From NCBI GenBank assembly GCA_007376265.1, contig VMFW01000001.1, positions 2,455 to 66,454 on the forward strand: DNA of 64,000 nt, in the 5' to 3' direction. Positions 6 through 46,563 of this stretch are shown here, one piece after another; position 1 is the stretch's first letter; each line of letters opens with the position of its first letter. Source of the DNA: Parcubacteria group bacterium Gr01-1014_20 (GTDB taxonomy: Bacteria; Patescibacteriota; Minisyncoccia; UBA6257; 2-01-FULL-56-20). The notes beneath the pieces were generated by a model. It searched no databases and was not told where the DNA came from. It saw only the letters and a program-made list of their open reading frames with translations. The position numbers were made by a program, and so were the translations under genes.

Positions 6-1724
6 TTGAAGTTGGGAGTTTTTATTTCGCTCTTCTCTTTGGTCATACCTAGAGTAACGCACGCTGGTTGGTTGTTCGATCTTGAGGATGCAGCCGCATG
101 GTTATTTGGTTGGATAATGTTCGTGGTGAGTTATTTAATATCGACTATTTTTGGCTTTTTTATCGCCATTCAGGCTTGGGCGATAGGGCTACTCCTCCAA
201 ATTCAATCGGCTCAAAAAATCGTAAACCTGCCGGTCGTGTCGATTGGTCACGAGATGATGCTCTCGCTTGCCAACCTAGGCTTTGTGGCGGCGATTATAT
301 TTATCGCTGTCGCCACCATCCTTAGGCTTCAGACCTACAACGTTAAGAAGACTTTATGGAAGTTAATTATTGCCGCGCTCCTTGTAAATTTCAGCCTGGT
401 TTTTACGGGCGCGATTATGAACTTGTCGGATCAGTTGAGTTTTACATTTTTACAGCAGTTCCCGGGACAATCCCCCGGATCAACGACTGGTTTTGCGAGC
501 GCCATCACAACGGCTTTTTCTCCGCAGAAGTACCTGAATCCTCAGGCTGACCCGGAAGCTAGGGCGGCAGCGGCGGCAAACCCCGCAGGGGTGACAGAAC
601 AATACGCTGGGGCGATATCACAAGTGGACGATGACCATCAGGAGGATATCGATGGAATTGGCCAGCTTCTAGCGCCGATTTTCTCGATGGTGATGACAGT
701 TTTAGGGTTGGGATCAATAGTGATGGTCTTGGGAGCTTTTCAAGTTTTACTGCTCATCAGATACATTGCTTTATCGATTCTTCTTGTGCTGATGCCAATG
801 GTGTGGCTTTTTTGGATCTTTCCGGGGCTTAGTGGGATGTGGACTTCCTGGTGGAAAAACTTTTTCCGGTGGACCTTTTTTGCGCCCATCGTTTTGTTTT
901 TTGTGTGGCTCGTAATTAAAACCGGGGAGGCGATGCAAGCTGGGTCTGCGGGAAGCCCGTTTAGCGGAGAAAACATGAACTTCTCGTCGAGTGATCCAAG
1001 CCCGTTGATAGCCTCTATCTCCAACTTCCTAGGCCAAACTTTCACACCGATTATCGGCACGACTCTGAATGGCTTCGTCTTAGTTGGATTGATGGTGGGG
1101 GGGCTTTTTGCGGCCAACAAGCTTTCGATCACGGGAGCGGGAGCGGCGGTGTCAGCTGTCAAGGGAGCTGGGAAGGGGGCGGCCAAGGGAGCGTGGGGAT
1201 ACACTAAGGGCAAGGCCACATCCACCCTCGGAAGACCGCCGGACCAGGACAAAGCTGGTTTTAAGGGATTGATGCAAAAAATGAATTTAGCCCAGGGCGT
1301 TCGCAAAAGAGTTCAGGATGCGGCCAAAATAGAGCAGAAGGTTGGTATTAAAGACGGCCCGGCCACAAAATTGGCGGCTAAAGGGAAGGAGGCAGCCGAG
1401 GAGTCAAAGAAGCGCGACGAGATGAAAAAGGAATATATTTCTAGGTATGGGGAAATTAAGGGGCGGGCGGCTTACGCGGTGGCTCCAGGGAAACCCAGCC
1501 CAACTCTGGTTCAATCTGTTTTCATTGAGGCCGCGAGGGGAAGCGGGCTTTTGGGAAAGAGCCAAAAGCTAACTAAGGAGCAAAAGAAGATGTTGGGGCT
1601 AGAGGAGAGAGAGGAGAAGGAGGAGAAACCAGAAGGAGAAAAGAAACCGGTTATCATCGCTGGAACCCAGGATGCTTACAACGAAGCAACGGGTGGGGGG
1701 CCGAAAATAATCCCTGGAGCTTAG
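6..1724 (+). CDS. VirB6/TrbL-like polytopic membrane protein with a Lys/Glu-rich C-terminal tail; possibly 5'-partial, since the frame is open to the window edge
   Basis: Possible signal peptide at the N-terminus, six or more hydrophobic helices and a long charged tail; lies in a cluster with a VirB4 ATPase. TTG start at 6. Confidence 0.45.
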   Translation: MKLGVFISLFSLVIPRVTHAGWLFDLEDAAAWLFGWIMFVVSYLISTIFGFFIAIQAWAIGLLLQIQSAQKIVNLPVVSIGHEMMLSLANLGFVAAIIFIAVATILRLQTYNVKKTLWKLIIAALLVNFSLVFTGAIMNLSDQLSFTFLQQFPGQSPGSTTGFASAITTAFSPQKYLNPQADPEARAAAAANPAGVTEQYAGAISQVDDDHQEDIDGIGQLLAPIFSMVMTVLGLGSIVMVLGAFQVLLLIRYIALSILLVLMPMVWLFWIFPGLSGMWTSWWKNFFRWTFFAPIVLFFVWLVIKTGEAMQAGSAGSPFSGENMNFSSSDPSPLIASISNFLGQTFTPIIGTTLNGFVLVGLMVGGLFAANKLSITGAGAAVSAVKGAGKGAAKGAWGYTKGKATSTLGRPPDQDKAGFKGLMQKMNLAQGVRKRVQDAAKIEQKVGIKDGPATKLAAKGKEAAEESKKRDEMKKEYISRYGEIKGRAAYAVAPGKPSPTLVQSVFIEAARGSGLLGKSQKLTKEQKKMLGLEEREEKEEKPEGEKKPVIIAGTQDAYNEATGGGPKIIPGA

Positions 1725-1734
1725 CGGTATCATC

Positions 1735-2757
1735 ATGAACTACTCATTATTTGAACCACAAATTTTAGTTGACCGTTTCGCGTCTTTGCCGGAGAACATC
1801 AAGAGTTCCTTGAATCACCCGAGCGACGCCGAGATTGTGGAACAAATTTGCCGGAATAATTTTTTGGAGGACGGCGACAAGATTTTAATGGTTCAACAGC
1901 TAACAACCTTGGTTTTGATGGGGTTTCTTTTGCCCGAGGAGCTAGGACGAGAAATTGCCAACAATCTTCACCTGAACCTAAAAGCAGGCCAAGCGATTGC
2001 CGAGGAGATTGATCGGAAAATTTTTACTTCGATTCATGCTGATCTAAAGAGAGTTTATTCGCCTCTCAAAGAAGCGGCGGCCGATGGTCCCGGACCAGTT
2101 ATCCTCGGGGTCACTTCGGCGGAGACGGGATCGGTCACAATGATTCCGGGGGGAATAGCGGCCGAGGCCGAGAAAAAATTAAAGGGAGCTTCGATTCAGG
2201 AAAAGATTGCGATTCTTCGAGAGGCCGCGACGGCAGGATTTGCAAGTCAGATTCCAAACATTGAGGAACACCTCAAGGAAAGCGAATTTAAGCTTTATGG
2301 AGAGCAAAAAACTTATCAGGACATCGCCGACCGAAGCGGACTAAGCCTAAAGACAATGGTGGCGGACAAAAAAACGACCGAGAGTCAAGCTGGGCCGGCG
2401 AGTGAAGTGGTTCAGAAAATTTCGGCCTACTTCAAACGCCTTCCCTCGCCCGGTGAGCTGGATTCTTTTTTTGGCGACTCATCTTTGACAAAACTCCTGC
2501 CCTTTGGACTAGACGCAACCGCACTCAAAGAAGTTCAGCTCGAGGTGGTGCGCGGAGTGACTTCGGGTTTTTCGCCGGAGGTGATGGCTAACTTTTTTGC
2601 TCAGCTTGTCAAAAGGGGGCGGCTTGAGAACTTTACTGCGGTGGCTCGCGGAGCAGGACTAAAGGAGTCCGACTTCGCGCCTGACAATTTACGATGGCTT
2701 ACAAACCAAGCGGCTGCGCCGCTTGGGATTGGTCGCCAAACTTTTGGTTTAGCTTAA
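1735..2757 (+). CDS. Hypothetical protein whose N-terminal ~100 aa are paralogous to the next ORF
   Basis: Shared motifs with ORF 2761: ...L(V/I)L(M/G)FL(L/R)PE(E/D)... and ...KIF(T/S)(S/P)(I/L)... then ...R(V/A)YxPL. Tightly packed in the same operon. Confidence 0.5.
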   Translation: MNYSLFEPQILVDRFASLPENIKSSLNHPSDAEIVEQICRNNFLEDGDKILMVQQLTTLVLMGFLLPEELGREIANNLHLNLKAGQAIAEEIDRKIFTSIHADLKRVYSPLKEAAADGPGPVILGVTSAETGSVTMIPGGIAAEAEKKLKGASIQEKIAILREAATAGFASQIPNIEEHLKESEFKLYGEQKTYQDIADRSGLSLKTMVADKKTTESQAGPASEVVQKISAYFKRLPSPGELDSFFGDSSLTKLLPFGLDATALKEVQLEVVRGVTSGFSPEVMANFFAQLVKRGRLENFTAVARGAGLKESDFAPDNLRWLTNQAAAPLGIGRQTFGLA

Positions 2758-2760
2758 CAA

Positions 2761-4146
2761 ATGACAATCACAAAAGAACAGGCTCAAACTCGATTTAAAA
2801 CCCTAACGCCTCTTTTGAAATCGGCACTTTTTTCGGTTCAAACCGCGGAGTCGATCGCAAGGGTGGCCGAACAAAACACCCTGCCAAAAGAAAAATCGAC
2901 CCAGATGGCGGAGGTGGCGGGGCTCGTAATACTAGGATTTCTACGACCGGAGGATGCGGCCCCAGAAATTCAATTGCGACTTGGTGTCCCCGCTCAATCG
3001 GCTAAGAGCATATCGGATTCACTGAGCAGTAAGATTTTTTCTCCTCTCAAGATTGAGATTGACCGAGCTTACCAACCGCTTGCCGGAGGCGACAAAAAAC
3101 CGACTTTTTCAACGGGTTCAACGTCAAAGCCAAGTATTGTGGAGGAGATAAAACAGCTTGAAAAATCTGGCGAAGAACTGGTGGGGGTTTTGAAAAGAAT
3201 GGAGAGTCCGGTTAAACCAGCTCAACCCCCGAGTTTTCCCGCAAGTTCGGGAATGGTGAAGACCCCGGCCGCACCCTTCATTCCGCCTCGGCCGTCAGCG
3301 GTCCCACTCCCTCCCTCTATTGAACTCAAAACAACTCCACCCCCACCCGTCCATGGACCAGTAATCCTCCACCGGGAATCGGAGGCTAACCCACTCGCAT
3401 CTGGCTTGGGTTTTAAGCTCGATATCCCCTCGGGAAAATTTTCGGATCGAGGCGTTACGCCCGAATCTACAGGGAAGATGGCGAGGTTAGAGGTTGGGGG
3501 AATGCAAAAATCGCCTGCCAATGCCACGGCTAGGACAGGCGTGGCGGGAGCGGGGAAAACCTTAAACTACGGCGGAAGTTTTGACCAAAATCCGAGACCA
3601 ACGGTGCCACCGCCACTCCCCATCAGGCCCACAGAGGAACCGTTTTCGAAGTCGGCTTTTGGGGGTTTGCCGCCCGTCATGCCTAAACCCTCTGTCTTGC
3701 CGCAAAGCCCTCAAGTGAACCTTCCGAACCCACCTCGACCCCAGCCACCTCGTCCCGAACAGGCGCCCCCCAACTTACCACCCCTGCCCGACAAAAAATA
3801 TCAAACTATGCCCAGGATAGAGAACAAACCCTCGCCCTTCGGCTGGATAAAATCTCTTTTTGGAAATAAGCAGCGACCCGTTCCTCCCGAAGTTAAGGTG
3901 GTGAACTTGAGCGCGGATAGTCGGCCAACCACCCCAAAAATAGAACTGCCCCAGCCCCAAAAACAAGGGCCGCCGCCAATACCCGCTTCTCCTCGTCCCC
4001 CGACCCCCCCCTTGCCCCCACCGCCAACCCCCGGCCCGAGGAGTAGCTCTCCGACAGTTGACATAAAACTTAAGGCGCCAGCTCCAACCCCGAACCAGAC
4101 CGAAGAAGTGATTGATTTGAGTTCGCTTACGAAGATAAGGAAGTAG
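2761..4146 (+). CDS. Hypothetical protein with a paralogous N-domain and a very proline-rich C-terminal ~250 aa (PPxP repeats)
   Basis: ATG start 4 nt after the previous stop. Long ORF whose proline codons create spurious antisense ORFs. Confidence 0.55.
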   Translation: MTITKEQAQTRFKTLTPLLKSALFSVQTAESIARVAEQNTLPKEKSTQMAEVAGLVILGFLRPEDAAPEIQLRLGVPAQSAKSISDSLSSKIFSPLKIEIDRAYQPLAGGDKKPTFSTGSTSKPSIVEEIKQLEKSGEELVGVLKRMESPVKPAQPPSFPASSGMVKTPAAPFIPPRPSAVPLPPSIELKTTPPPPVHGPVILHRESEANPLASGLGFKLDIPSGKFSDRGVTPESTGKMARLEVGGMQKSPANATARTGVAGAGKTLNYGGSFDQNPRPTVPPPLPIRPTEEPFSKSAFGGLPPVMPKPSVLPQSPQVNLPNPPRPQPPRPEQAPPNLPPLPDKKYQTMPRIENKPSPFGWIKSLFGNKQRPVPPEVKVVNLSADSRPTTPKIELPQPQKQGPPPIPASPRPPTPPLPPPPTPGPRSSSPTVDIKLKAPAPTPNQTEEVIDLSSLTKIRK

Positions 4147-4161
4147 TGGTATATTTTTTCT

Positions 4162-4671
4162 ATGCAGTTTCAGGTTCCTCAATTTATTGAAACGGAGGAT
4201 AAAATTGTTGGCCCGCTATCACTTCGGCAATTTATTTATATTGCGGTGGCGGGAGCGCTTTGCTTTATCTTGTTTTTCGCCCTTAAAACTTGGCTTTGGT
4301 TTATTTTTACAGTCTTGCTCGCGGCGATATCCTTTTCTTTAGCTTTTTTGAAGGTGAATGGACAACCCTTAGTAAGGGTGATTATGGCTGGAGCAAGATT
4401 TCTATGGAAGCCGCAAACTTTTGTTTGGCAGCCGGAACGGAAGACCCCTACGAGAGGGACTGACATGCAACCAGAAAAACCAGCTTTTTCGCTTCAAGAC
4501 ATCATGGCGGGGATGGCTCTTAGAAGCACGTGGCAGAAACTACAGACTGGCAGTCGGAAGTCACCAGCAGAAGAGGTGAAGCCGATTACTCAGAAAATAA
4601 AAGAAAGGTATCAAATTTTCGAGAAAATCACCGGCGAGCGCCAGGCAGCCAGGCGGGTAGATTACCGATAG
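4162..4671 (+). CDS. Small two-helix membrane protein, PrgI/VirB3-like candidate
   Basis: 169 aa with two adjacent TM helices near the N-terminus, positioned immediately upstream of VirB4 as in Gram-positive T4SS loci. Confidence 0.4.
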   Translation: MQFQVPQFIETEDKIVGPLSLRQFIYIAVAGALCFILFFALKTWLWFIFTVLLAAISFSLAFLKVNGQPLVRVIMAGARFLWKPQTFVWQPERKTPTRGTDMQPEKPAFSLQDIMAGMALRSTWQKLQTGSRKSPAEEVKPITQKIKERYQIFEKITGERQAARRVDYR

Positions 4672-4742
4672 CTGGGCATGGGTGAGTGTTTTTTTAAATA
4701 GAGAAACTTTGGGTTTCTCGATTTTGCTTTATAATAATTGGG

Positions 4743-5465
4743 ATGGCCTTAAACAAGCAATTATCAAATACGCAGGACCTGGTGGCGATTGAGGAGATTC
4801 ATGACAACACGGTTATCTTAAAAAGCGGGGCAATGCGACAAGTGCTTATGGTGGGCGGCATGAACACGGCTCTTAAATCGGAGGAGGAGCTGAATTTGAT
4901 TACGACGTCTTATCAGAATTTTCTGAACAGCCTCGATTTCTCGATTCAGATCATCGTTCACTCACGAAAGGTGAATATAGAAAAGTATCTTTCGGGCCTA
5001 GAGGAAAGGCGGCGGTTGGAACAGTCGGCTATTCTGCAAAGTCAGATTTCAGAGTACAAGGAGTTTATCGCTGGCTTTGTTCGAGAAAACGACATTATGG
5101 AGAAGACCTTTTTAGTGGTGGTGCCGTTTAGCCCGAGTGGCCTCGCCGGAGTAACGTCGGCTTCGGGAGTTGCGAAACTGTTTCCTTTCTTCGGTGCGAA
5201 AGGCGATGCGAAAGAGGTGAAGGTCAAAGAGGGGATGGAAAAGGAGGCGAGTTTCAAAGAGAGTTTGGGTCAGTTAAATCAAAGAGTTAACCAGATTGTC
5301 GAGGGCTTGCGAGCGATTGATCTAGACGCGGCAGTTCTAGGCGACGAGGAGCTGATTGAGCTTTTTTATAACTTCTACAATCCTGAAACAGTTGAGCGGG
5401 GAAACCTAAATGTCCCAGTCGAAAAAAACGAAGGCGTTGAAGGTGATGAGGTGGAGAACAAATAA
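4743..5465 (+). CDS. VirB4-family N-terminal domain encoded as a separate ORF
   Basis: Motif ...DNTVILKSGAMRQVLMVGGMNTALKSEEE... resembles the VirB4/TrbE N-terminus. TAA stop lies 2 nt before the ATG of the ATPase ORF, which is in a different frame. Confidence 0.6.
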   Translation: MALNKQLSNTQDLVAIEEIHDNTVILKSGAMRQVLMVGGMNTALKSEEELNLITTSYQNFLNSLDFSIQIIVHSRKVNIEKYLSGLEERRRLEQSAILQSQISEYKEFIAGFVRENDIMEKTFLVVVPFSPSGLAGVTSASGVAKLFPFFGAKGDAKEVKVKEGMEKEASFKESLGQLNQRVNQIVEGLRAIDLDAAVLGDEELIELFYNFYNPETVERGNLNVPVEKNEGVEGDEVENK

Positions 5466-5467
5466 TC

Positions 5468-7183
5468 ATGCCAGGAATCAATTTTAAAGAGACAAAAAAG
5501 ATAATCGCTCCAGCCGGAGTTCAGGTTGAGTCGAACTACCTGAAAATTGGAGATAAGTTTGTTAAAACTTTCTTTATATTTTCCTATCCGAGATATCTTT
5601 CGACAGGTTGGTTCGAGCCACTCATAAACTTGCCAAATATTTTTGATATTTCGATTTTTATTAACCCGGTAGACACCGGGATGGCACTCAAAAAACTCCG
5701 AAAGAAGGCTGCTCAAATCGAGTCGCAGATCAGCGACCAGCAGGAAAAGGGACTGGTGAGGGATCCCCTACTCGAGACGGCATTTCAGGATGTGGAGAGC
5801 TTAAGAGACGCTCTCCAACAAGCGCAAGAAAGGCTTTTTGAGATTGGGGTTTACGTTTCGATTTATGCCGACGATCTGGAGGCCTTGGCTAAACTTGAAA
5901 GTCGAATCGACTCTTTAATGGAAGCCAAACTTATATACATCAAGCCCGCGCTTTTCCAGCAGATTGAGGGGCTGTCTTCAATTTTGCCTCTCGCAAACGA
6001 TGAGGTGGATGTGACGACCCCGATGAACTCGGCGCCGATCTCTTCTTTTTTCCCGTTCGTTTCGGAGGACCTAAACTCCAGCCAGGGCATTATGTACGGC
6101 ATTAACCGTCATAACAACAACCTGATTATTTTTGATCGTTTCTCGCTCGAGAATGCAAATCAGGTGGTTTTTGCCAAATCTGGTTCTGGAAAATCCTATG
6201 CCACTAAGCTCGAGATAATTCGCTACTTGATGATGGGGGTGGATGTTCTCGTAATTGATCCGGAAAATGAATACAAAAAACTCTGTGAAGCGTTTGGGGG
6301 AAGTTTCTTCAATATATCTCTCTCGTCTCACGAACATATTAATCCTTTTGATGTGCCGGTTGTTCCAGAAGGAGAAACGCCAACGGATGTTCTCCGCTCT
6401 CACATAGTTAACCTAGCTGGGTTATTGAAGCTAATGCTTGGAAACATTAGCGTGGAGGAAGACGCGCTCTTGGATCGAGCAATCACTGAAACTTACGCCT
6501 CAAGAGAGATCGTGCCCGGAGAAGATTTCTCCGGAGCCCAACCACCGCTGCTTGAAGACTTGGAAACTGTGCTTCGGAACCTCGAAGGAGGGCGGGGAAT
6601 AGCCGAGCGGCTTTACAAATTTACGAAGGGAAGTTTCGCTGGGTTTGTGAATCAGCCCACCAATATTGATATTGGTAATCGCTTGATTGTTTTTTCTATC
6701 CGCGACCTTGAAGACGAACTTAGGCCGATTGCGATGTACATAATTCTTAACTTCATTTGGAATTTAACTCGGGCGCAACTTAAGAAGAGGTTGCTAATTA
6801 TAGATGAGGCTTGGTGGATGATGAAATATGAAGATAGCGCTACATTTCTTTTTGGGTTGGTGAAGCGGGCGAGAAAATATTACTTAGGGGTTTCCACGAT
6901 CACTCAAGACGTCGAGGATTTCTTAAGGTCCCCTTACGGGCGGCCAATTATTACTAACTCTTCCATTCAGCTACTACTCAAGCAGGCGCCGGCGACGATT
7001 GATATCGTGGCTAAGGCTTTTGGGCTTACTGAAGCCGAAAAAAATATGCTTCTTTCGGCGGAGGTGGGGACGGGGCTTTTCTTCGCGGGCCGGAAACACG
7101 TGGCTATCCAGATTATCGCTTCTTTCTTTGAAGACCAACTAGTGACAACCAACCCCCAGCAACTCCTAGAGGAAAAAGCTTGA
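5468..7183 (+). CDS. virB4: VirB4/TrbE/PrgJ-family conjugation-type ATPase (C-terminal ATPase portion)
   Basis: Walker A AKSGSGKSYATK, Walker B LLIIDEAWWMM, and a YPRYLSTGWFEPLINLPNIFDIS segment typical of Gram-positive VirB4. SD GAGGTGG lies upstream within the previous ORF. Confidence 0.85.
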   Translation: MPGINFKETKKIIAPAGVQVESNYLKIGDKFVKTFFIFSYPRYLSTGWFEPLINLPNIFDISIFINPVDTGMALKKLRKKAAQIESQISDQQEKGLVRDPLLETAFQDVESLRDALQQAQERLFEIGVYVSIYADDLEALAKLESRIDSLMEAKLIYIKPALFQQIEGLSSILPLANDEVDVTTPMNSAPISSFFPFVSEDLNSSQGIMYGINRHNNNLIIFDRFSLENANQVVFAKSGSGKSYATKLEIIRYLMMGVDVLVIDPENEYKKLCEAFGGSFFNISLSSHEHINPFDVPVVPEGETPTDVLRSHIVNLAGLLKLMLGNISVEEDALLDRAITETYASREIVPGEDFSGAQPPLLEDLETVLRNLEGGRGIAERLYKFTKGSFAGFVNQPTNIDIGNRLIVFSIRDLEDELRPIAMYIILNFIWNLTRAQLKKRLLIIDEAWWMMKYEDSATFLFGLVKRARKYYLGVSTITQDVEDFLRSPYGRPIITNSSIQLLLKQAPATIDIVAKAFGLTEAEKNMLLSAEVGTGLFFAGRKHVAIQIIASFFEDQLVTTNPQQLLEEKA

Positions 7184-7220
7184 GTGTGATCGGGAGCTTC
7201 AAGGTGGTAGAATAATATAT

Positions 7221-7784
7221 ATGGAAGACGAGCGTGATCATGAACCACTAATATCTCTGGTTGAGATTTTGATCATTGCCCCCTACATACTGGTAATCGA
7301 TATTATCGGAATACTTTTGGCGTTTTTGGCGTTGGATGATTTTTTCATTTTGGACATTTTGATGTTGCCGGTACTAGGATACCTCTGGTTTAAGGGGGTG
7401 CCGCTTACGAGATATGTTTCTTCGGCTATTGGGGAGGCGATACCGTGGATAGGAGATTTGCCGCTGTATTCGGTTGGTTTCATTTTAACGATTGTTGCGG
7501 ACAGAAACCCGAAGGTGGGGGCGGCCCTTGGAGCGGCCACGGGTTCAACGGCACTTGCCAAGGGGGCGGGAGGAGTCGCCAAGGGCGTGCAGGCGGAAAA
7601 AGGAGCGGTGGCTAAAGCTAAGGACTCGCTTCCAAAGAGGTCTCCGGCGACCCAACAGGCAACCGGACTGGAGGCCGATAGACCGCTTAGGGGACTAAAA
7701 GATACGATGGAGAAGGTTCCAGAATCAAATGTGGTTGATCTGCGCGGAGAGGAAGAGGACGATGAATACGGGATGGTGGCTTAG
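7221..7784 (+). CDS. Small membrane protein with a Gly/Ala/Lys-rich tail and acidic C-terminus
   Basis: Two or three TM helices. Its KGAGGVAKG-type motif resembles the one in the VirB6-like protein. Confidence 0.5.
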   Translation: MEDERDHEPLISLVEILIIAPYILVIDIIGILLAFLALDDFFILDILMLPVLGYLWFKGVPLTRYVSSAIGEAIPWIGDLPLYSVGFILTIVADRNPKVGAALGAATGSTALAKGAGGVAKGVQAEKGAVAKAKDSLPKRSPATQQATGLEADRPLRGLKDTMEKVPESNVVDLRGEEEDDEYGMVA

Positions 7785-7836
7785 GTTCTCGGTGGATCGC
7801 TGTTGATGAATATATGTGTGTTAGTTGTTATAATTG

Positions 7837-8520
7837 ATGGGAATGAATAAAAAAGGAGCTCTTTTTATAGTACTGTTTTTTTTCTTAGCAGCCTTCGCTT
7901 ACGTCGCTCGTGGCCAGACTTTTTCTCCTTCGGCAATTCTCACATGGCGGGCGGCGACTTTTTCACCGGCCAAATACCAAGGCAAAAACCTACCAACAGC
8001 CGGTGCTCAAATAAATTTGTCGGTCGAAGTGATTAATAAGGGGGTTTTGCTTAATTTAGCGAAGCAGAACATTCTGTGGTATTTGGGTGACGAACTGATC
8101 GCAAGTGGCGAGGGAGTGCGGGAGGCGATTTTTAGACCAACGAGAGACGGCCTTCAAGACGTGAGGGTGGAGGTTTGGTCACAATTCGGAAAGGTTTCGG
8201 CGGGAACAAAAATTCCGGTTGTGTGGCCGGAGGCAGTTGTCTCGGCGCCGTTTCCCGGGGGGAATTTTTCTAAGACAAACCTGACGGTTAGAGGATATCC
8301 GTATTTTTTTAATGTGGCTAATTTGGCTGATCTCAACTTTGTCTGGAAGGTAAATTCTAAAGAAGTCGGCGCGGCGGGTGACGTTGATGTCTTAAACCTA
8401 AACGTTGATCCGAAGGCGGCCCAGGGCTTTAGGTTGAATGTGGGTTTGAGTATCACAAAAAAGGCCGGGGACAAACAAGGATCGAGCAAGGAGGTGATTC
8501 TCACCTACAAAAAAATTTGA
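7837..8520 (+). CDS. Secreted protein with a signal peptide, function unknown
   Basis: N-terminus MGMNKKGALFIVLFFFLAAFAYVARG. An extended -10 element TGtTATAAT lies upstream at about 7815-7823. Confidence 0.5.
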   Translation: MGMNKKGALFIVLFFFLAAFAYVARGQTFSPSAILTWRAATFSPAKYQGKNLPTAGAQINLSVEVINKGVLLNLAKQNILWYLGDELIASGEGVREAIFRPTRDGLQDVRVEVWSQFGKVSAGTKIPVVWPEAVVSAPFPGGNFSKTNLTVRGYPYFFNVANLADLNFVWKVNSKEVGAAGDVDVLNLNVDPKAAQGFRLNVGLSITKKAGDKQGSSKEVILTYKKI

Positions 8521-9083
8521 TGGCGCGGCTAGTAGTTCATAAAACGATGGTTTTGATCTTTCTCTCCGTTGGTCTAGTGGTCTTAGGTTTGGGGTCAACC
8601 TTGGCGGCAGAGACAAACATCAGCGTGGGTATTCCGGGGCCTAACGATACGGTGGCCGAGGGGAGCGCCAACCCGGCTGGGGTGGTGGCGAATGCCTATC
8701 AGTTCGCGCTCATGATCGGGGGGTTAATGGCTTTTGTGATGATAGTTTACGGCGCCGTAAAATACACGGCGGCAGGCGGAAACAGTTCGGTTCAGAGCGA
8801 TGCCAAAGACCGGATCACGCAGGCGCTTTTGGGGTTAGCGCTTTTAGTTGGGGCGGCCATAATTCTTTCGACGATAAGCCCCCGCTTTAAATTAGAAAAT
8901 GGTGTTTTTACACTCCCGACGATTCCTTCTGGGCAGCAACTAGAAGAAGAAACGAACGCGCTTTTTAATCCTTTTCAAAATAACCCGCCGGGACAGTGTG
9001 GTCCGGTTGGTAGTCCCTGTACGTGCCCAGGCGGAACGAGTGGTAGTTGCGCCGCCGACGGAAGGTGTACGCCCTGTACATAA
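8520..9083 (+). CDS. VirB2/TrbC-like pilin candidate with a Cys-rich C-terminal extension
   Basis: Long signal peptide, then two hydrophobic helices (ANAYQFALMIGGLMAFVMIVYGAV and ALLGLALLVGAAIILSTI) separated by a charged loop. The tail has 6 Cys in CGPVGSPCTCPGGTSGSCAADGRCTPCT. Confidence 0.45.
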   Translation: MARLVVHKTMVLIFLSVGLVVLGLGSTLAAETNISVGIPGPNDTVAEGSANPAGVVANAYQFALMIGGLMAFVMIVYGAVKYTAAGGNSSVQSDAKDRITQALLGLALLVGAAIILSTISPRFKLENGVFTLPTIPSGQQLEEETNALFNPFQNNPPGQCGPVGSPCTCPGGTSGSCAADGRCTPCT

Positions 9084-25439: not shown

Positions 25440-26069
25440 ATGGATAAAGTCGGGCTTTTAAAAGAAGTTGAGCAAGAGATGATTCAAAATCGAGGCTTGC
25501 CTCTACGGGAGGCGAACTTAGTTTTTGGTGAAGGTGACGTTAACTGCAGTGTGATGTTTATCGGGGAAGCGCCGGGTTTTCATGAAAACGAGGCCAAACG
25601 GCCGTTTGTCGGACGGGGAGGACAGTTGTTGCGAAGGCTGATAAGGGAGCTCGGTTGGCTAGAGCAGGATGTCTATATCACAAATATCGTGAAGAGGCGG
25701 CCGCCGGAGAATCGGGACCCTAGCCCCGAGGAGATAGAGGCTTATCGACCCTACCTGGCGCGTCAGATTGAGATAATCAATCCCAAAATTGTTGTCCCTT
25801 TGGGCCGTTTTTCCATGAATTATTTTTTGCCGGAGGCGAAGATAACCCGTGACCAGGGAAGAGCTTTTAAGATTAACCATAGGCTTATTGTGCCGATGTT
25901 TCACCCGGCGGCGGCTCTTAGGTCAACTGGGGTTTTGGATCAGCTCCGGGCAAGTTTTTTGAGGTTGCCGCGTATAATCGGGGGAGAGGTTTTTGACGCG
26001 AACGTTTTAGTTTCATCACGAGAAGTAAAGCCGGCTACTCCCAAACAGGATCAAGTCAGCTTGTTTTAA
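25440..26069 (+). CDS. Uracil-DNA glycosylase, family 4
   Basis: GEAPGFHENEAKRPFVGRGGQLL and a C-terminal HPAA motif. The ATG at 25440 is preferred because the track start at 25407 is TTG. Confidence 0.85.
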   Translation: MDKVGLLKEVEQEMIQNRGLPLREANLVFGEGDVNCSVMFIGEAPGFHENEAKRPFVGRGGQLLRRLIRELGWLEQDVYITNIVKRRPPENRDPSPEEIEAYRPYLARQIEIINPKIVVPLGRFSMNYFLPEAKITRDQGRAFKINHRLIVPMFHPAAALRSTGVLDQLRASFLRLPRIIGGEVFDANVLVSSREVKPATPKQDQVSLF

Positions 26070-26091
26070 TTTTTTGGAATATAATTAAACC

Positions 26092-26442
26092 ATGGCCATC
26101 GTTTACCTTTTGAGTCGTCTTGGATATAGGACTTTGGATTTTTTTCATCACTGGTATTACCACGGATCAAGAGTTTTAACGAATTACTTTTTTGCATTCC
26201 TCGAGAAGCTGGATCGAGGGGTGGCCTTAAAAATAACACTGAAGTATTTTTTTCAGCCACTCTATAAAGACTACACGGTGATTGGCAGAATTCTGGGCGT
26301 GATTTTCAGAACTTTCAGAGTTGGCATTGGTTTCGTTGTCTATGGTTTTTTTGGATTTTTATTTACGGGCATTTACTTGGCTTGGGTTTTGCTTTTGCCA
26401 GCGATTCTTTTCTTTTTTGTGAGGAATTTATTTTTTCAATGA
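26092..26442 (+). CDS. Small membrane protein translationally coupled to the Clp-like ATPase
   Basis: Two C-terminal TM helices; its TGA stop overlaps the downstream ATG as ATGA. Confidence 0.5.
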   Translation: MAIVYLLSRLGYRTLDFFHHWYYHGSRVLTNYFFAFLEKLDRGVALKITLKYFFQPLYKDYTVIGRILGVIFRTFRVGIGFVVYGFFGFLFTGIYLAWVLLLPAILFFFVRNLFFQ

Positions 26443-28973
26443 GCATAAAGAAAGAAGAAGCAAGCGTCTATTTCGATGATCCGAGGCTCCGGATGGGCCT
26501 TTTCGGGCGGCTCACGGTCAGGGTGGCGGGGTACGTGGGGAATTTGGTTTTGGCGGTAGCTTGTTTTTCTTTGCTTTTTGCTTCGATTGGTTGGGCGCGT
26601 TATTTGGGACTTTTGTTTTTACTTTTCTTGATGGACAGATTTATTCATCGAGGAGAGGCGGACAAGCCTATTCCCGAGCGGCCAAAAGAGGGCCCGGTCA
26701 ACGTGGCGCTTTTTATGAGGCCGAGTGCTTTTTTGGCTCTCGAGAGGGCATACGATAAAAGTTTGATTTCAAAAACCAGCTTGTCCCTAGAGGCCCTAAG
26801 GGAGCTCTTGAACTTGCCGGAGATTCAAGAGGGTTTAGCAAGGATGGACGTCGAGCTTGGAGAGGTTAGGCAAAAGACCGAGGAGTTTTTACACCAAAGT
26901 GTTCAGATGATTCCGGGTGACCATAAACAAAAGAAAGAAGCGGCTCAAGAGATTGCCGTTAAGGCTTTTGAAATCGCCTCCCTTCATAACGATCAATTTG
27001 TTGAGCCCGCCAGCCTTTTTTCAGCCTTACCCCATACTTCGAAAGACGATTTTGTGAGTCGACTTTTTAATTTATTCGAGATTGAGAGCGACGACTTGGC
27101 CAAGGCGATGATGTTTGGGGTTTTAAAGAAACAGTTTTACTCAGTTGGGCGGATGCCGGGAAGTGTTGGGGAGTTTGTGAGGGGTCCGAAAAGAAGCTTG
27201 CGCCACCGGGTAATGAATCGAGCTTGGACGAGTCGGCCGACACCGACTTTGGATAGATATAGCTACGACTTAACCGATTTAGCGAGGCAAGAAAAAGTGG
27301 GTTTTCTAATTGGCCACAGGCTTGAGTTTGATAGATTGGTTGATGTGCTTTCTCGATCAGCGAATCCCAACGTGCTTTTGGTGGGTGAGGTAGGAGTGGG
27401 AAAGGAAACTTTGATTAGCCACCTGGCATTTCAGATCATTAAAGACAGGGTTCCGCCACCGCTTTTTGACAAACGATTAGTGTCCTTGAGTATCAGCAAC
27501 CTTGTGGCTGGAGCGGCGCCCGAGGAGCTTCAGGCCAGGTTGGATAGAATCATAAATGAGATCATTGCGGCTGGAAACATCATTCTCCACGTGCCGGATA
27601 TCCATAACTTAGTTAGAACTTCCGGGACGGCGTATCTCTCGGCCGCTGATGCCCTGATGCCGATATTTATGGATAATGCTTTTCCCATTATCGGGGCAAC
27701 TTTTCCCAAGGAGTATCGGGAAAACTTGGAGCCGAGGACTGATTTTAATGGGATTTTTGAAAGGATACAGGTTAGTGAAATAACTGAAGATGAGGCGGAA
27801 AGACTTTTGGTTTACGAGAGTTTGATTTTAGAGAGAGATTCGGGAGTGATGGTAACTTTCGGGGCGATTAAGAAAGCCGTGAAGCTGGCAAGAAAGTATT
27901 TTCGCAACAAGTTTTTACCGTCTTCTGCTGAAGAGCTCCTGAAGAACGCTTTGGCTGAAGCCAAAAGAAGAAAAGAGGTGGTGCTTGGACCAAACGAGAT
28001 TATTCGAACGGCCGAGGCTAAAGTTAATATTCCGATTCACGAGGCCTCGGAAGCGGAAGCTGCGGCGCTGGTTAACCTCGAAGAGATAATCCACGAGCGG
28101 CTAGTTGGTCAAGAGGAGGCGGTTCACGCAGTTGCAAACGTGCTTCGGGAGTATCGAAGCGGGCTTTCGAAGCCCGGAGGCCCAATTGCCAGCTTTCTTT
28201 TCGTTGGACCAACGGGAGTGGGCAAGACCGAGCTTTCCAAAATTTTGGCCAAGGTTCAGTTTGGCTCAATCGATCTCATGGTTCGCTTCGATATGTCCGA
28301 GTATCAGGACAAGCAGAGTTTTTATCGTTTCATCGGTTCGCCGGATGGGAAGATTTCCGGCGCCTTAACCGAAGCAATAACTCAAAAACCCTATAGCCTA
28401 ATTCTGCTCGATGAGTTCGAGAAAGCCTTTCCAGATATTTTGGATTTGTTTCTTCAGGTTTTTGACGATGGGAGGTTGACGGACAATTTGGGGCGGACGG
28501 TTGATTTCCAAAACACGATTATCATTGCGACCTCGAATGCTCAATCAGACATAATCAACGATGCTCTCCGACAAGGACAAACCATGAGTCAAATTGCGGA
28601 GTACTTAAAAAGTAAGCTAACTGATACTTTCAAACCGGAGCTTTTAAATCGTTTTTCGAAGATCGTGGTTTTCAATAATCTATCTCCTGGAGATCTCGAA
28701 AAAATAGCGCTGATTAATCTCAACGGTTTCTCAAAACTGGTGGCGGAGCAGGGGGTGGGATTGAAATTCAGTCTGGAGGCCGTTCGAGCGGTGGCGAAGC
28801 TCGGCTATGAGCCGGCTTTTGGAGCGCGACCGATTAATCGGGTGATTGAAGAGAGGCTCCGAGCTCCCTTGGCCGAGAAGATCCTAAAGCGGGAGGTTCA
28901 AAAAGGTAAAGAGTATCAGGTAACTTTCGAGGACGAGGCTTTCAAGTTTGTGCTTATGGAGAGAAATGGATAA
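26439..28973 (+). CDS. Membrane-anchored Clp/Hsp100-family AAA+ ATPase with a degenerate first nucleotide-binding domain
   Basis: Two N-terminal TM helices and Clp_N-like repeats. D1 reads GEVGVGKETL with no DE Walker B. D2 is canonical: GPTGVGKTELSK, LLDEFEKAFPDILDLFLQVFDDGRLTD, sensor-2. No IGF/IGL ClpP-docking loop seen. Confidence 0.8.
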   Translation: MSIKKEEASVYFDDPRLRMGLFGRLTVRVAGYVGNLVLAVACFSLLFASIGWARYLGLLFLLFLMDRFIHRGEADKPIPERPKEGPVNVALFMRPSAFLALERAYDKSLISKTSLSLEALRELLNLPEIQEGLARMDVELGEVRQKTEEFLHQSVQMIPGDHKQKKEAAQEIAVKAFEIASLHNDQFVEPASLFSALPHTSKDDFVSRLFNLFEIESDDLAKAMMFGVLKKQFYSVGRMPGSVGEFVRGPKRSLRHRVMNRAWTSRPTPTLDRYSYDLTDLARQEKVGFLIGHRLEFDRLVDVLSRSANPNVLLVGEVGVGKETLISHLAFQIIKDRVPPPLFDKRLVSLSISNLVAGAAPEELQARLDRIINEIIAAGNIILHVPDIHNLVRTSGTAYLSAADALMPIFMDNAFPIIGATFPKEYRENLEPRTDFNGIFERIQVSEITEDEAERLLVYESLILERDSGVMVTFGAIKKAVKLARKYFRNKFLPSSAEELLKNALAEAKRRKEVVLGPNEIIRTAEAKVNIPIHEASEAEAAALVNLEEIIHERLVGQEEAVHAVANVLREYRSGLSKPGGPIASFLFVGPTGVGKTELSKILAKVQFGSIDLMVRFDMSEYQDKQSFYRFIGSPDGKISGALTEAITQKPYSLILLDEFEKAFPDILDLFLQVFDDGRLTDNLGRTVDFQNTIIIATSNAQSDIINDALRQGQTMSQIAEYLKSKLTDTFKPELLNRFSKIVVFNNLSPGDLEKIALINLNGFSKLVAEQGVGLKFSLEAVRAVAKLGYEPAFGARPINRVIEERLRAPLAEKILKREVQKGKEYQVTFEDEAFKFVLMERNG

Positions 28974-33078: not shown

Positions 33079-33379
33079 TGTTATCGCCGTCCTTTCTTCG
33101 GAAAACGAAATTTTAAAGGCGTGAATTTACTGGGAGTGATAGTATCACCTTGCTCTACTGTTTGTCAATGGGGGGTTAGTTGTTGGAGGTTCAGATCGGA
33201 GCATAATAACCCAGAGCACAAGACCCCGCCCTTGGGTGGATTTTTGTTAGCGGTGTTTTGGTGGAGATAGGGGAATTTCACTGCCTACCTTGAAGGAAGC
33301 TCCGACGTGATAGTCGGAGCACTCGTTTTGCAAACAAAAAAATACCGTGATCAATCGGTATTTTTTGTGCAAAACTGAG

Positions 33380-33695
33380 TGGAGATGGGCGGAATTGAAC
33401 CGCCGTGTAAGGGTATTGCCGCTAAATCATCTACGAGTGTATTTCCGCCGAAGCGAAAAAGGTTTGATTCATTGTCTCGTTCCTAAACCAGAATCATCGT
33501 TTAGAAACCAGTCTTCGGTATAACACCGCGATTAGCCAGAGAAGACTACCCAGCTAGGCGATGCCGAGTTTAAGCGTAAGCTAGGCTCGGAGCTGCAACT
33601 TTGTTGTTGGCAGTTATAAATTTTTTTGTCGGATTAACGAGACGACGCTCGACTCGCAATTCAGAACTTTACCCCTATCGAAGCCATTCATCCCC
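33380..33695 (-). ncRNA. ssrA: tmRNA (SsrA)
   Basis: 5' end GGGGATGAATGGCTTCGATAGGGG; 3' tRNA-like end GGCGGTTCAATTCCGCC-CATCTCC-A pairs with the 5' end including a G3-U wobble. Internal tag ORF GCC AAC AAC AAA GTT GCA GCT CCG AGC CTA GCT TAC GCT TAA gives ANNKVAAPSLAYA. Terminator hairpin downstream at about 33330-33365. Confidence 0.8.
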
Positions 33696-42996: not shown

Positions 42997-45900
42997 ATGT
43001 TCGTTAAAGATTTAAAAGAATTTAATTTGCCCAAAACCGAGGAAAAGGTTTTGGAGTACTGGAAGAAAAACCAAATTTTCGAAAAAACACTCGCTTTAAG
43101 GAAACCCACCTCCGCTAAAGCTTCGAAGGGCAAAAAACACTTCGTGTTTTTTGAGGGGCCACCGACGGCGAACGGCCGGCCTGGGATCCACCACGTTTTG
43201 GCGCGAGCTTTTAAGGACGTCATTTTACGGTATAAAACCATGCGGGGTTTTAACGCGCCGCGGCGGGCGGGGTGGGACACGCACGGACTGCCAGTAGAGA
43301 TTCAGGTTGAAAAAGAGCTGGGCTTGAAGTCGAAAAAAGATATTGAAAAATTTGGGATCGCGGAGTTTAACAAAAAGTGCAAGGAATCGGTCTGGAAATT
43401 TAAGGATGAGTGGGAGAGGTTAACCGAGCGGATGGGTTTTTGGTTGGATATGAAAGACCCTTATGTCACTTACGAGAAAGATTATATTGAAACTTTGTGG
43501 TGGATCATCGCGCAGTTTTGGAAGAAGAAGCTTTTATACAAAGGAAACCGAATAGTGAATTGGTGCACCCGTTGCGGAACAGGACTTTCTTCACACGAGA
43601 TGGCGCAGGGGTACAAGGAAGTGACGGATAATTCGGTTTATGTAAAGTTTAAACTGAAGAAGGGCCAGAAGGTCGGAAAAGATTTTTCGACAAACGATAA
43701 AACCTATATTTTATCTTGGACAACCACGCCCTGGACGTTGCCCGGTAACGTAGCGCTCGCAGCTGGAGAGAAGATACGTTACGTCTTTATTGAAGCCGAT
43801 GGAGAAGTTTTGGTTTTAGCTAAAGAAAGGATGGAGGCGGTGGGAGTTCAGGGAAGAATTATTAAAGAAACGATGGGCAAAGATTTGGTAGGTTTGTCGT
43901 ACCAACCGCTTTTTGAGGTGGACCCACTCAAGAGCAAAAATTCTTACAAAGTTTATGCGGCGGATTTTGTGACGACGACGGATGGAACAGGTGTGGTGCA
44001 TACGGCGGTCATGTACGGAGAGGATGACTACAAGTTGGGCGTGAAGATGGGTTTGACCCAACACCACACCGTGGACGTGGCAGGGAAATTTACAAAAGAC
44101 GTAAAAGTTCTGGCGGGTATGTACGTCAAAGATAAAAAAACTGAAGAAAAAATTCTTAATTATCTAAAAGCTAGAAGTTATCACCTGAAAACTGAACCAC
44201 ACAAACATGACTATCCGCATTGCTGGCGATGTTCGACGCCTCTGCTTTATTATGCGAGGTCGTCTTGGTTTGTGGCGATGTCGAAGCTCAAAAAAGAACT
44301 TTTAGCTAGTAACAATAAGATCAATTGGACGCCAGAGCACGTTAAAAATGGAAGGTTTGGCGAGTGGCTTCGAGAGGTTAAAGATTGGAATTTTTCGCGG
44401 GAAAGATACTGGGGGACGCCCTTGCCGATTTGGGAGTGTAGCAAATGCGGGATTACGGAAGCAATTGAGAGTTTAGCTGATTTAGATGGAAAAACCGGAG
44501 GGGCGAGAAATCGGTATTGGGTGATGAGACACGGACAATCCGAGGCGATGATGGTGGGCGTGATTGACGCTGGTAAAGGAAAGTATCGTTTGACTGACCT
44601 GGGACGAAAACAAGCGGAAAAAACCGCCAAGAGGTTGGCCAAGGAAAAAATTGATTTAGTAATTAGCTCCGATGTTTTGAGGACTAAAGAGACGGCGCAA
44701 ATTGTGGCCAGGGTTTTGGAGGTGGGGAAGCCGGTTTTAGATGAGCGTCTTCGCGAGATAAATTTGGGGGTTTTGGCCGGAAAATCTGTTCGGGAGTATT
44801 CGGAGATTTTGCCTACGCTCGATTCCAGGATTTTAGGAAAACCAGAAGGTGGGGAGTCGATAACAGATGTGAGAACCAGGATGTGGAGTTTCGTTCAGGA
44901 GATTGAGAAGAAGTATAAAGGCAAAAATATTTTGCTAGTTAGTCACGAGTACCCGATATGGATTTTAAGTCAGGTGATGAATGGCTGGACGAATCAGGAA
45001 CTCATTCTAGAAAAAACTAAAGGGGGAAAAAACTATATTGAGGCTGGTGAGGTTTGGGGGGTGGCGCATAAGGTTTTGCCGAGAGATAATACCGGTCTGG
45101 TTGATTTGCACCGACCGTATATCGACGAGATTTTCCTAAAGTGTTCGAAGTGCGAAGGAAAAATGAAGAGGGTAAAAGAATTGGCGGACGTCTGGTTTGA
45201 TTCTGGGGCGATGCCGCTAGCACAGTCTCATTTTCCATTCGACCGTGCAAAAAGTTCCAAGTCACAAATAACAAATAACAAAGAACACGTTGATTATCCG
45301 GCGGACTATATTTGCGAGGCAGTGGATCAGACGCGGGGATGGTTTTATACGCTTTTAGCGATAGCCACGGCTCTCGGTAAGAACGCGCCTTACCGAAATG
45401 TAATTTCGCTCGGACATATCAACGACAAACACGGGCAAAAAATGTCCAAATCAAAAGGAAACATTGTTGATCCGTGGATGATGGCAGAAAAATATGGCAT
45501 GGATGCCGTGCGTTGGTACATGTATGCTGCGACACCGCCGGGAGAGCCAAAAAATTTTGACGAGCAAGAGCTTCTTAAAACCTACAGGCGGATGCATTTA
45601 ATTTTGTGGAACTCCCTTCTTTTCTATAAAACATACGCCGTTTCTGGGTCCAGTCGTAAGTTGGGGTTGCGGCCGAAGTCTAAGAATTTGCTTGATTTAT
45701 GGATGCTCTCTCGGCTTGATGAGGCGATAGTCAGAGCGACTAAAGCGATGGATCGATATGATATTCGGGGGGCTGCGCTCGAGATTGAAAAACTGGTGGA
45801 CGATCTTTCTAGATGGTACATTCGTCGCTCGCGACGAAGGTTGCAACGACCGGAGAGTAAAGCCGATTTTGAAGCTTGTGCGTCTACGCTTCAGCATGTC

Positions 45901-46563
45901 CTAGCCTCGATTTCTAAAATGATGGCGCCGTTTAATCCTTTCTTTTCGGAGGTTGTTTGGAATACTTTGGGAGGCGCGAGCTCTATTCACCTTGAAGATT
46001 GGCCGACAAGAAACATTAAGAGCCAAGCGCCAGGCAATAAGTTGGTGGAAGAGATGGGAGTGATACGCGGCTTAGCAACCCTGGGTTTGGCGAAAAGAGC
46101 CGAGGTGGGGGTGAAGGTGAGACAGCCCCTCTCGGTGATGAAAATAAAGCCCAAGGTTACCAACAAGCAGTCGCTTCAGATTTTGGCTGATGAGGTCAAT
46201 GTTAAAAAGACTATCGTTGATGCGAAGATAAAAGGTGAGATCGAACTCGATACAAGGATAACTGCGGAGTTGAAAGAAGAGGGGATTTTAAGGGAGCTCG
46301 TACGGGCGATTCAGGATTTGCGTCAGAGAGCGGGGCTGGAGCCTGGCGACGCGATTGTTGTGATGTTGGAGTTGCCGGATAACTTGCGAGAGATAGTTTT
46401 GTCCGCCGGAGGCCGATCCTCCTCGGGAGGAAAAAATGAAGCCTTTTTGAAGAATGAAACTGGAGCTAAAAGTATTGAATACAAAAGATCAGAAAAGTTT
46501 GAAGCGGAAGCGATCACGAAGTTTGAAGATTCAGAGGTTTGGTTGGCAGTTAGGAAGATATAA
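42997..46563 (+). CDS. ileS: Isoleucyl-tRNA synthetase carrying an inserted histidine-phosphatase-like domain
   Basis: HIGH motif PPTANGRPGIHHV, CP1 editing motifs (TTPWTLPGN, GTGVVHTA), KMSKS. About 190 aa (RYWVMRHGQSE ... LLVSHEYPIW) lie between PLPIWECSKCG and DLHRPYID. Confidence 0.95.
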   Translation: MFVKDLKEFNLPKTEEKVLEYWKKNQIFEKTLALRKPTSAKASKGKKHFVFFEGPPTANGRPGIHHVLARAFKDVILRYKTMRGFNAPRRAGWDTHGLPVEIQVEKELGLKSKKDIEKFGIAEFNKKCKESVWKFKDEWERLTERMGFWLDMKDPYVTYEKDYIETLWWIIAQFWKKKLLYKGNRIVNWCTRCGTGLSSHEMAQGYKEVTDNSVYVKFKLKKGQKVGKDFSTNDKTYILSWTTTPWTLPGNVALAAGEKIRYVFIEADGEVLVLAKERMEAVGVQGRIIKETMGKDLVGLSYQPLFEVDPLKSKNSYKVYAADFVTTTDGTGVVHTAVMYGEDDYKLGVKMGLTQHHTVDVAGKFTKDVKVLAGMYVKDKKTEEKILNYLKARSYHLKTEPHKHDYPHCWRCSTPLLYYARSSWFVAMSKLKKELLASNNKINWTPEHVKNGRFGEWLREVKDWNFSRERYWGTPLPIWECSKCGITEAIESLADLDGKTGGARNRYWVMRHGQSEAMMVGVIDAGKGKYRLTDLGRKQAEKTAKRLAKEKIDLVISSDVLRTKETAQIVARVLEVGKPVLDERLREINLGVLAGKSVREYSEILPTLDSRILGKPEGGESITDVRTRMWSFVQEIEKKYKGKNILLVSHEYPIWILSQVMNGWTNQELILEKTKGGKNYIEAGEVWGVAHKVLPRDNTGLVDLHRPYIDEIFLKCSKCEGKMKRVKELADVWFDSGAMPLAQSHFPFDRAKSSKSQITNNKEHVDYPADYICEAVDQTRGWFYTLLAIATALGKNAPYRNVISLGHINDKHGQKMSKSKGNIVDPWMMAEKYGMDAVRWYMYAATPPGEPKNFDEQELLKTYRRMHLILWNSLLFYKTYAVSGSSRKLGLRPKSKNLLDLWMLSRLDEAIVRATKAMDRYDIRGAALEIEKLVDDLSRWYIRRSRRRLQRPESKADFEACASTLQHVLASISKMMAPFNPFFSEVVWNTLGGASSIHLEDWPTRNIKSQAPGNKLVEEMGVIRGLATLGLAKRAEVGVKVRQPLSVMKIKPKVTNKQSLQILADEVNVKKTIVDAKIKGEIELDTRITAELKEEGILRELVRAIQDLRQRAGLEPGDAIVVMLELPDNLREIVLSAGGRSSSGGKNEAFLKNETGAKSIEYKRSEKFEAEAITKFEDSEVWLAVRKI

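Follow-up and report, generated by a model that had tools for sequence, protein, structure and literature searches.

The closest described systems are the type IV secretion systems (T4SSs) of Patescibacteria treated by Quinonero-Coronel et al. (2025, Microb Genom; PMC12102498), in whose main text TrsD is described as remotely homologous to the N-terminal part of VirB4. According to that main text, TrsD is the most abundant T4SS component beside virB4 in this phylum (2272 homologues, 1664 of them virB4-associated), is known outside Patescibacteria only in the pGO1 subclass of MPF-FATA, and is essential in the case of the Ca. S. epibionticum homologue; the T4SS cluster of Paceibacteria adjoins dnaA, dnaN, rnpA and rpmH. 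Guglielmini et al. 2014 (PMC4027160) do not use the name TrsD in their main text, and the homology statement rests on PMC12102498. Here we describe a virB4 locus from Parcubacteria group bacterium Gr01-1014_20 (assembly GCA_007376265.1, contig VMFW01000001.1, positions 2,455 to 66,454), the whole 64,000-nucleotide (nt) stretch being referred to as the window. VirB4 is encoded there by two adjacent open reading frames (ORFs), with lengths given in amino acids (aa):

4743 to 5465, plus strand: ORF1, ATG start, 240 aa, TAA stop at 5463-5465; TrsD-like protein, first half of the VirB4 N-terminal domain, detached from the rest
5463 to 5470, plus strand: ORF1/ORF2 junction, TAA-TC-ATG (TAATCATG), that is stop, 2-nt spacer and start
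5468 to 7183, plus strand: ORF2, ATG start, 571 aa; VirB4 ATPase without the first ~220 residues

The locus is an instance of the already published TrsD plus VirB4 system and is neither a pseudogene nor a new mechanism, and it is very likely that the two ORFs represent a genuine, conserved two-gene arrangement. It shares with the MPF-FATA-derived Patescibacteria T4SSs, as these are described in the main text of PMC12102498, the phylum, the gene set (VirB6-like protein, PrgI/VirB3, TrsD, VirB4 and VirB2-like pilin) and the chromosomal site by dnaA, dnaN, rnpA and rpmH, and there is no essential difference from them. What it adds is small, namely a cut that lies inside the N-terminal domain, a junction that is probably without a working Shine-Dalgarno (SD) site, and recurrent re-fusions in relatives; a term search of the same main text returned no mention of TrsD-VirB4 fusions, of the position of the break in the N-terminal domain or of the junction geometry.

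A preliminary description of this DNA had placed the stop of the first ORF at 5463-5465 and the start of the second at 5468 in a different frame, and these coordinates proved exact when the ORFs were checked again. The codon phase is 0 mod 3 for ORF1 and 2 mod 3 for ORF2, which puts ORF2 in the -1 (= +2) frame. NCBI (TSC82824.1 and TSC82825.1), ENA and Logan all have the same boundaries for both ORFs. The deposited name of TSC82824.1 (ORF1) is 'hypothetical protein' and that of TSC82825.1 (ORF2) is 'Type IV secretory pathway VirB4 components-like protein'.

Both parts map in order, ORF1 and then ORF2, on full-length VirB4 models, which confirms a colinear split of VirB4. On the CD1110 model (752 positions) ORF1 aa 10-123 correspond to 1-116 and ORF2 aa 8-547 to 186-734; on the Mbov_0397 VirB4 model (894 positions) ORF1 aa 4-114 correspond to 98-219 (E 2e-11) and ORF2 aa 8-558 to 294-892; and on TIGR00929 (792 positions) ORF1 occupies 6-169 and ORF2 238-725. 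The two ORFs add up to 811 aa as compared with 792-797 aa in fused homologues, in keeping with the original estimate of a normal VirB4 of ~800 aa. The Pfam model TraC_F_IV, which describes the N-terminal domain over 375 positions, is shared out between the two products, with ORF1 aa 174-217 on 133-175 and ORF2 aa 76-176 on 274-374. Because this model is divided, and because the solved VirB4 C-terminal domain (PDB 4ag5_A) matches only ORF2 aa 203-560 (E 9.8e-51), the cut must lie within the classical VirB4 N-terminal domain of ~400 residues, about halfway along it. The initial division into an N-domain and an ATPase is therefore right in relating ORF1 to the N-terminal part of VirB4, but ORF2 aa 1-200 still belong to the N-terminal domain. 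In single-chain VirB4 proteins (TrwK of R388, the CD1110 family, TraC of F), whose models are covered end to end and in order by the two products, the same regions form one polypeptide, whereas in the window they form two.

ORF1 is a TrsD-like protein and corresponds, as a separate polypeptide, to the initial ~220 residues of the N-terminal domain of VirB4. Its aa 4-113 match positions 9-121 of the 201 in the NCBIfam TrsD/TraD model NF041427 (E 5.6e-8), and the gene has the size (~200-250 aa) and the position, between VirB3/PrgI-like and virB4-like genes on one strand, of a TrsD/TraD gene. The TraC-like family PF26593 is a precomputed annotation on P0001, which is 100% identical to ORF1, and on all 120 listed homologues; our local Pfam scan (E<=0.1) returned neither PF26593 nor PF27097 for ORF1, and the library used may lack the PF26593 model. 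In an AlphaFold2 model of ORF1 (predicted local distance difference test score, pLDDT, 72; predicted template modelling score, pTM, 0.57) the 13 best Foldseek matches in the PDB were all TrwK/VirB4 chains from the cryo-electron microscopy structures of R388. An alignment of 55 ORF1 sequences has 38 invariant columns and a mean column identity of 55%, indicating that the protein is under constraint. Several results weigh against this assignment. The NF041427 match scores 32.8 bits and does not reach the curated cutoff of 200, so that it speaks for remote homology only; the hhalign comparison of ORF1 with TrsD of pSK41 is weak (E 4e-4, probability 35%); the fold match is modest, with a best Foldseek E of 3e-3, a query-normalised TM-score of 0.39-0.45 and the pLDDT given above; and an ORF1 profile run against PDB sequences returned no VirB4, only 2f40 and Nop56 at chance level.

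ORF2 is the rest of VirB4, with the remaining half of the N-terminal domain at aa 1-200 and then the ATPase domain with its Walker A and B motifs. It exceeds the curated cutoff of the CD1110 family VirB4 model NF045971 (386.2 bits against 325) and matches the P-loop domain PF19044 P-loop_TraG with E 1e-29 and 103.8 bits (cutoff 25.8). No complete N-terminal domain is present on this one chain, and the missing part is ORF1. The two nucleotide-binding motifs are as follows:

6173 to 6196, plus strand: Walker A, AKSGSGKS, ORF2 aa 236-243
6788 to 6814, plus strand: Walker B region, RLLIIDEAW, ORF2 aa 441-449

In an alignment with 19 homologues (A1), the Walker A residues K237, G239, G241, K242 and S243 and the Walker B residues R441, D446, E447, A448 and W449 are invariant.

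The same order of genes is found in the staphylococcal plasmid pSK41, in which a VirB3-like gene (25492-25899) is followed by trsD (25886-26569, 227 aa) and, after a gap of 14 nt, by the gene for TrsE (26584-28602, 672 aa). ORF2 from aa 13 aligns with TrsE from aa 38 (E 3e-35), so that the cut is at a homologous position in pSK41 and in the window. The pSK41/pGO1 pair TrsD/TrsE (MPF-FATA, pGO1 subclass) thus shares with ORF1 and ORF2 the order VirB3-like, TrsD, VirB4-like and a homologous ATPase start; it differs in that the pSK41 genes lie on a plasmid that is conjugative and carries relaxase and coupling protein, whereas the window cluster is chromosomal, and the similarity of ORF1 to TrsD is remote. 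Neither a relaxase nor a coupling protein was seen among the large window ORFs scanned, a scan that was not exhaustive. A tblastn search of plasmids with ORF1 found a TrsD-like gene directly 5' of a separate VirB4-like ATPase gene in three genera. The Pontibacillus pair encodes 274 and 621 aa and its genes overlap by 11 nt; the Geobacillus pair encodes 318 and 636 aa with a 14-nt overlap and has PrgI upstream; and in a plasmid of the actinobacterium Miltoncostaea PrgI is followed by proteins of 337 and then 661 aa. The split is old, being at the same protein point as that of staphylococcal TrsD/TrsE, and predates the diversification of Patescibacteria.

A search with ORF1 at E<=1e-3 gave 1121 homologues, of which the top 120 (52-100% identity) are without exception stand-alone proteins of 217-247 aa. 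Among the best 120 homologues of ORF2 (77-100% identity), 117 have 558-605 aa. In a representative library clustered at 50% identity the ORF1 profile found 3009 clusters at E<=1e-3 and 1419 at E<=1e-10, and a fused length (797 aa) occurs in one of the best 150 of these clusters. We then took 80 loci from GTDB species representatives and placed the N-terminal part and the ATPase with hidden Markov models (HMMs) built from the homologues. The best 80 GTDB matches are all Patescibacteria, and the loci comprise 72 that are split, 5 that are fused and 3 without upstream DNA, so that, at species level, the break is shared by 72 of the 77 loci that are informative. In all split orthologues the ATPase has a separate ATG at the homologous place. 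Relative to the TrsD part, the ATPase gene lies in frame 0, +1 and +2 in 18, 33 and 21 of the 72 split loci, respectively; the spacer from stop to ATG ranges between -14 and +497 nt (median 5) and is 8 nt or less in 45 of them, and the stop codon of the TrsD part is TAA in 57. Three of the split loci (L013, L046 and L064) have 445-497 nt between the two genes, which leaves room for an inserted small gene.

These data bear on the two ways in which the arrangement had been read at the outset, as a real division of VirB4 into two polypeptides or as a recent frameshift pseudogene. Under the latter, a single-base indel, real or introduced by the assembly, would have broken a virB4 gene of ~800 aa, an origin to which the 2-nt distance between two ORFs in different frames and the presence of fused genes of 792-797 aa in close relatives might point. 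The split is nevertheless the rule, not only at 72 of the 77 informative loci but also in 149 of the 150 best representative clusters, conservation is strong in both parts, the ORF2 ATG lies where the orthologues start, and the three databases agree on the ORF boundaries. The nearest split relatives differ from the window in frame and spacer, and for this reason the break is not one recent event. A recent pseudogene or assembly error is thus extremely improbable for a split that is conserved across hundreds of lineages and common to TrsD/TrsE of pSK41, and the real division into two polypeptides stands on both the colinear models and the conservation in orthologues. At the level of the family the wide variation of frames and spacers rules out a recent indel as well as a conserved programmed frameshift.

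Close relatives also have fused genes. The fused proteins P0171 (793 aa) and P0229 (792 aa) have 81% identity to ORF2, come from syntenic loci and were each found in at least two independent samples; five further fused genes are among the GTDB loci, and the fused loci overall are L001, L003, L014, L015, L025, L029 and L035. In these proteins the conserved motifs LYNFYNPE..EK and IAPxG flank the junction, a linker that is short and variable. In a tree of the ATPase region built by neighbour joining and rooted on Bacillales genes, fused L001/L003 are nested among the split genes of the clade to which the window belongs (100 of 100 bootstraps), fused L015 clusters with split L010/L012 (96 of 100), fused L014/L025/L029/L035 form one clade (94 of 100), and monophyly of all fused genes was recovered in 0 of 100 bootstraps. 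Because the outgroups are split and the fused genes occupy three separate places in the tree, the parsimonious view is that fusion took place secondarily at least three times in Paceibacteria. A combined MAFFT alignment of the fused proteins with the N-part and C-part homologues (A3) was left unused: the N-parts were put in the wrong place (30-38% identity), and no column outside the ATPase region was invariant. That split and fused forms are interchangeable is good evidence for TrsD and the shortened VirB4 acting together as a single VirB4, and the recurrent changes from split to fused allow the role of TrsD as the N-terminal VirB4 module to be argued from gene fusion (Rosetta stone). Shifts of the boundaries between virB3, the N-terminal part and the C-terminal part of virB4 have also occurred in the evolution of the VirB3-VirB4 fusions of some Gram-negative T4SSs (main text of PMC12102498), although these represent the opposite event, a joining to the upstream partner, which is absent in the window.

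ORF1 might on the other hand be an independent accessory protein, for instance an adaptor or regulator, that descends from the VirB4 N-terminus and is no longer part of VirB4. This would agree with the main text of PMC12102498, in which the TrsD homologues of Gracilibacteria are frequently located away from virB4, with extra C-terminal sequence in ~45 of the best 150 representatives (260-443 aa), and with a haloarchaeal plasmid on which the TrsD-like segment is joined to a different, larger upstream protein. We regard it as unlikely, given that the segment has repeatedly been re-fused to VirB4 at the original linker, in three lineages or more, that adjacency is near-universal and spacing tight, and that ORF2 alone is without the first ~190-290 positions of full-length VirB4 models.

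The lengthened representatives (P0259, P0274, P0309, P0336, P0353 and P0362 among others) consist of a conserved module of ~215 aa with the extra sequence after it and occasionally before it. The haloarchaeal case (L088) is from plasmid NZ_CP129994 of Salinibaculum sp. KK48, in which a 1075-aa protein (592-3819), encoded directly 5' of an 843-aa DUF87 ATPase (3861-6392), ends in the TrsD-like segment, so that the VirB4 N-part is fused to a different partner.

A single chain could in principle still be made by programmed -1 ribosomal frameshifting or stop-codon bypass, with a full-length fused VirB4 produced beside the separate products or replacing them. ORF2 is indeed in the -1 frame, which is closed by TGA at 5447-5449 and open from 5450, so that any frame change is confined to the 13-nt overlap at 5450-5462 (GGTGGAGAACAAA); the end of ORF1 is A-rich (AAC AAA TAA), and the fused proteins of relatives are evidently functional. 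The overlap contains no X XXY YYZ heptamer, however, frames that are distributed 18/33/21 and spacers of up to hundreds of nt in the orthologues do not allow a single conserved recoding mechanism, and the ATG of their own at the homologous position in every split orthologue likewise counts against recoding. Programmed frameshifting or readthrough was rejected on the variable frames and spacers and on the absence of a slippery heptamer, and we hold it to be very improbable. The preliminary description had found simple +1 frameshifting unlikely for want of a slippery site; the absence of a heptamer is borne out, but the shift needed would be -1 and not +1.

Initiation at the ORF2 ATG had in turn been connected with a string upstream of it:

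5448 to 5456, plus strand: SD-like string GAGGTGGAG, within ORF1 codons E-V-E; probably coincidental

The GAGGTGG at 5448-5454 does lie inside ORF1, 13 nt before the ATG of ORF2, but it is unlikely to have the role of an SD site. A core SD motif (GGAG, GAGG or AGGA) at a suitable distance before the ATPase start is present at 1 of 72 orthologous loci, and SD motifs precede 9 of 44 gene starts in the window as compared with 17.6% of random positions, which is no enrichment. SD-mediated coupling through GAGGTGG was accordingly ruled out as a conserved feature on the first count and is doubtful in this organism on the second, and GAGGTGG is probably not a working SD site. An Rfam scan of the window returned only one tmRNA and three tRNAs, and no 16S rRNA from which an anti-SD sequence could be read.

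Two further candidate signals lie between prgI and ORF1:

4701 to 4719, plus strand: hairpin with T-rich tail, terminator-like, from a consensus scan (weak evidence)
4730 to 4735, plus strand: TATAAT hexamer, 7 nt before the ORF1 ATG, a possible -10 box of a leaderless transcript

A -10-like hexamer is found 4-9 nt upstream of 10 of the 44 gene starts in the window and of 2.2% of all ATGs, an excess of about tenfold, which suggests that leaderless or non-SD initiation is widespread in Gr01-1014_20. In a promoter and terminator scan of 4000-7900 the sites were no commoner than in shuffled sequence. Further TATAAT-like hexamer sites in the window include those at 19380, 23101, 25440 and, on the minus strand, 35424.

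ORF1 and ORF2 would be co-transcribed, probably from a promoter immediately before ORF1, and ribosomes that end at the ORF1 TAA could restart 2 nt further on at the ORF2 ATG with no SD site needed. We consider such coupled termination and reinitiation at ORF2 somewhat more probable than not; it would yield roughly equal amounts of the two proteins. The spacers of the orthologues count against coupling as a general rule, since they are at least 64 nt long in 11 of the 72 split loci and exceed 440 nt in three; stop/start coupling is thus not universal, and because of these 11 loci it cannot be obligatory in the family. The ORF1 and ORF2 proteins are expected to associate non-covalently and so to rebuild a complete VirB4 protomer. 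In R388 the N-terminal domains of VirB4 bind inner to outer protomers and touch VirB3 and VirB8 (PMC12857230), and the TrsD-like part would make contacts of this type with VirB3/PrgI, with VirB8-like partners and with the neighbouring VirB4 protomer. By analogy, we infer that the TrsD-like protein ties the ATPase to PrgI/VirB3 and to adjacent protomers. The cut itself may have a function, with free TrsD as a separately dosed adaptor between the VirB4 ring and membrane-bound PrgI/VirB3, a flexibility that the re-fused lineages would have given up; this last suggestion is tentative and more improbable than probable.

The value of the result is chiefly for annotation. An annotator might take the pair, of which TSC82824.1 bears the name 'hypothetical', for a damaged virB4; it is better read as TrsD-like plus VirB4, a machine that is intact and, in bacteria with this epibiotic way of life, probably essential. 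If the cut does have a function, the natural pairs of split and fused proteins (81% identity) would offer a ready test of the role of the VirB4 N-terminus in a T4SS that is essential and non-conjugative. The locus leaves the present view of type IV secretion unchanged.

The remaining components of the cluster surround the two ORFs:

6 to 1724, plus strand: polytopic membrane protein, VirB6/TrbL-like, possibly truncated by the window start
4162 to 4671, plus strand: PrgI family (VirB3-like) membrane protein, Pfam PF12666 PrgI (E 3.1e-10, 40.9 bits, cutoff 27)
8517 to 9083, plus strand: VirB2-like T4SS pilin, Pfam PF18895 T4SS_pilin (E 3.1e-8, 34 bits, cutoff 26.6)

The order in the window is VirB6/TrbL_3-like, PrgI, TrsD-like, VirB4 and T4SS pilin, followed by R3H/Jag, YidC, DnaA and DnaN; the YidC-like and DnaA-like ORFs were recognised by sequence and by synteny with L001, and R3H by a domain scan. 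The product of 6-1724 had no match in our local Pfam copy, and its assignment comes from the syntenic gene of L001 (BLASTP E 2e-62), which carries PF19590 TrbL_3. The prgI gene adjoins ORF1 upstream as a separate gene 71 nt away, with no PrgI-ORF1 fusion, and L001-L004, Geobacillus, Miltoncostaea and pSK41 likewise have a PrgI/VirB3-like gene 5' of the TrsD-like one. Positions 2761-4146 (plus strand), which lie between the genes for the VirB6-like protein and PrgI, encode a protein of 461 aa that is very rich in proline in its C-terminal half and matches no Pfam family; at this place L001 and L003 have syntenic unannotated genes of ~398 aa.

Away from the T4SS cluster, the tmRNA gene (Rfam RF00023, 120 bits) is on the minus strand at 33377-33695, and ORFs of at least 150 aa are absent at about 30.2-34.2 kb. 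A class I aminoacyl-tRNA synthetase of 1188 aa is encoded at 42997-46563 (plus strand), with tRNA-synt_1 at aa 18-485 and 795-862 and Anticodon_1 at aa 900-1047. Its aa 508-668 form a histidine-phosphatase domain (PF00300 His_Phos_1, E 2.8e-35), which separates the two halves of the synthetase catalytic domain roughly at the usual site of the CP1/editing insertion.

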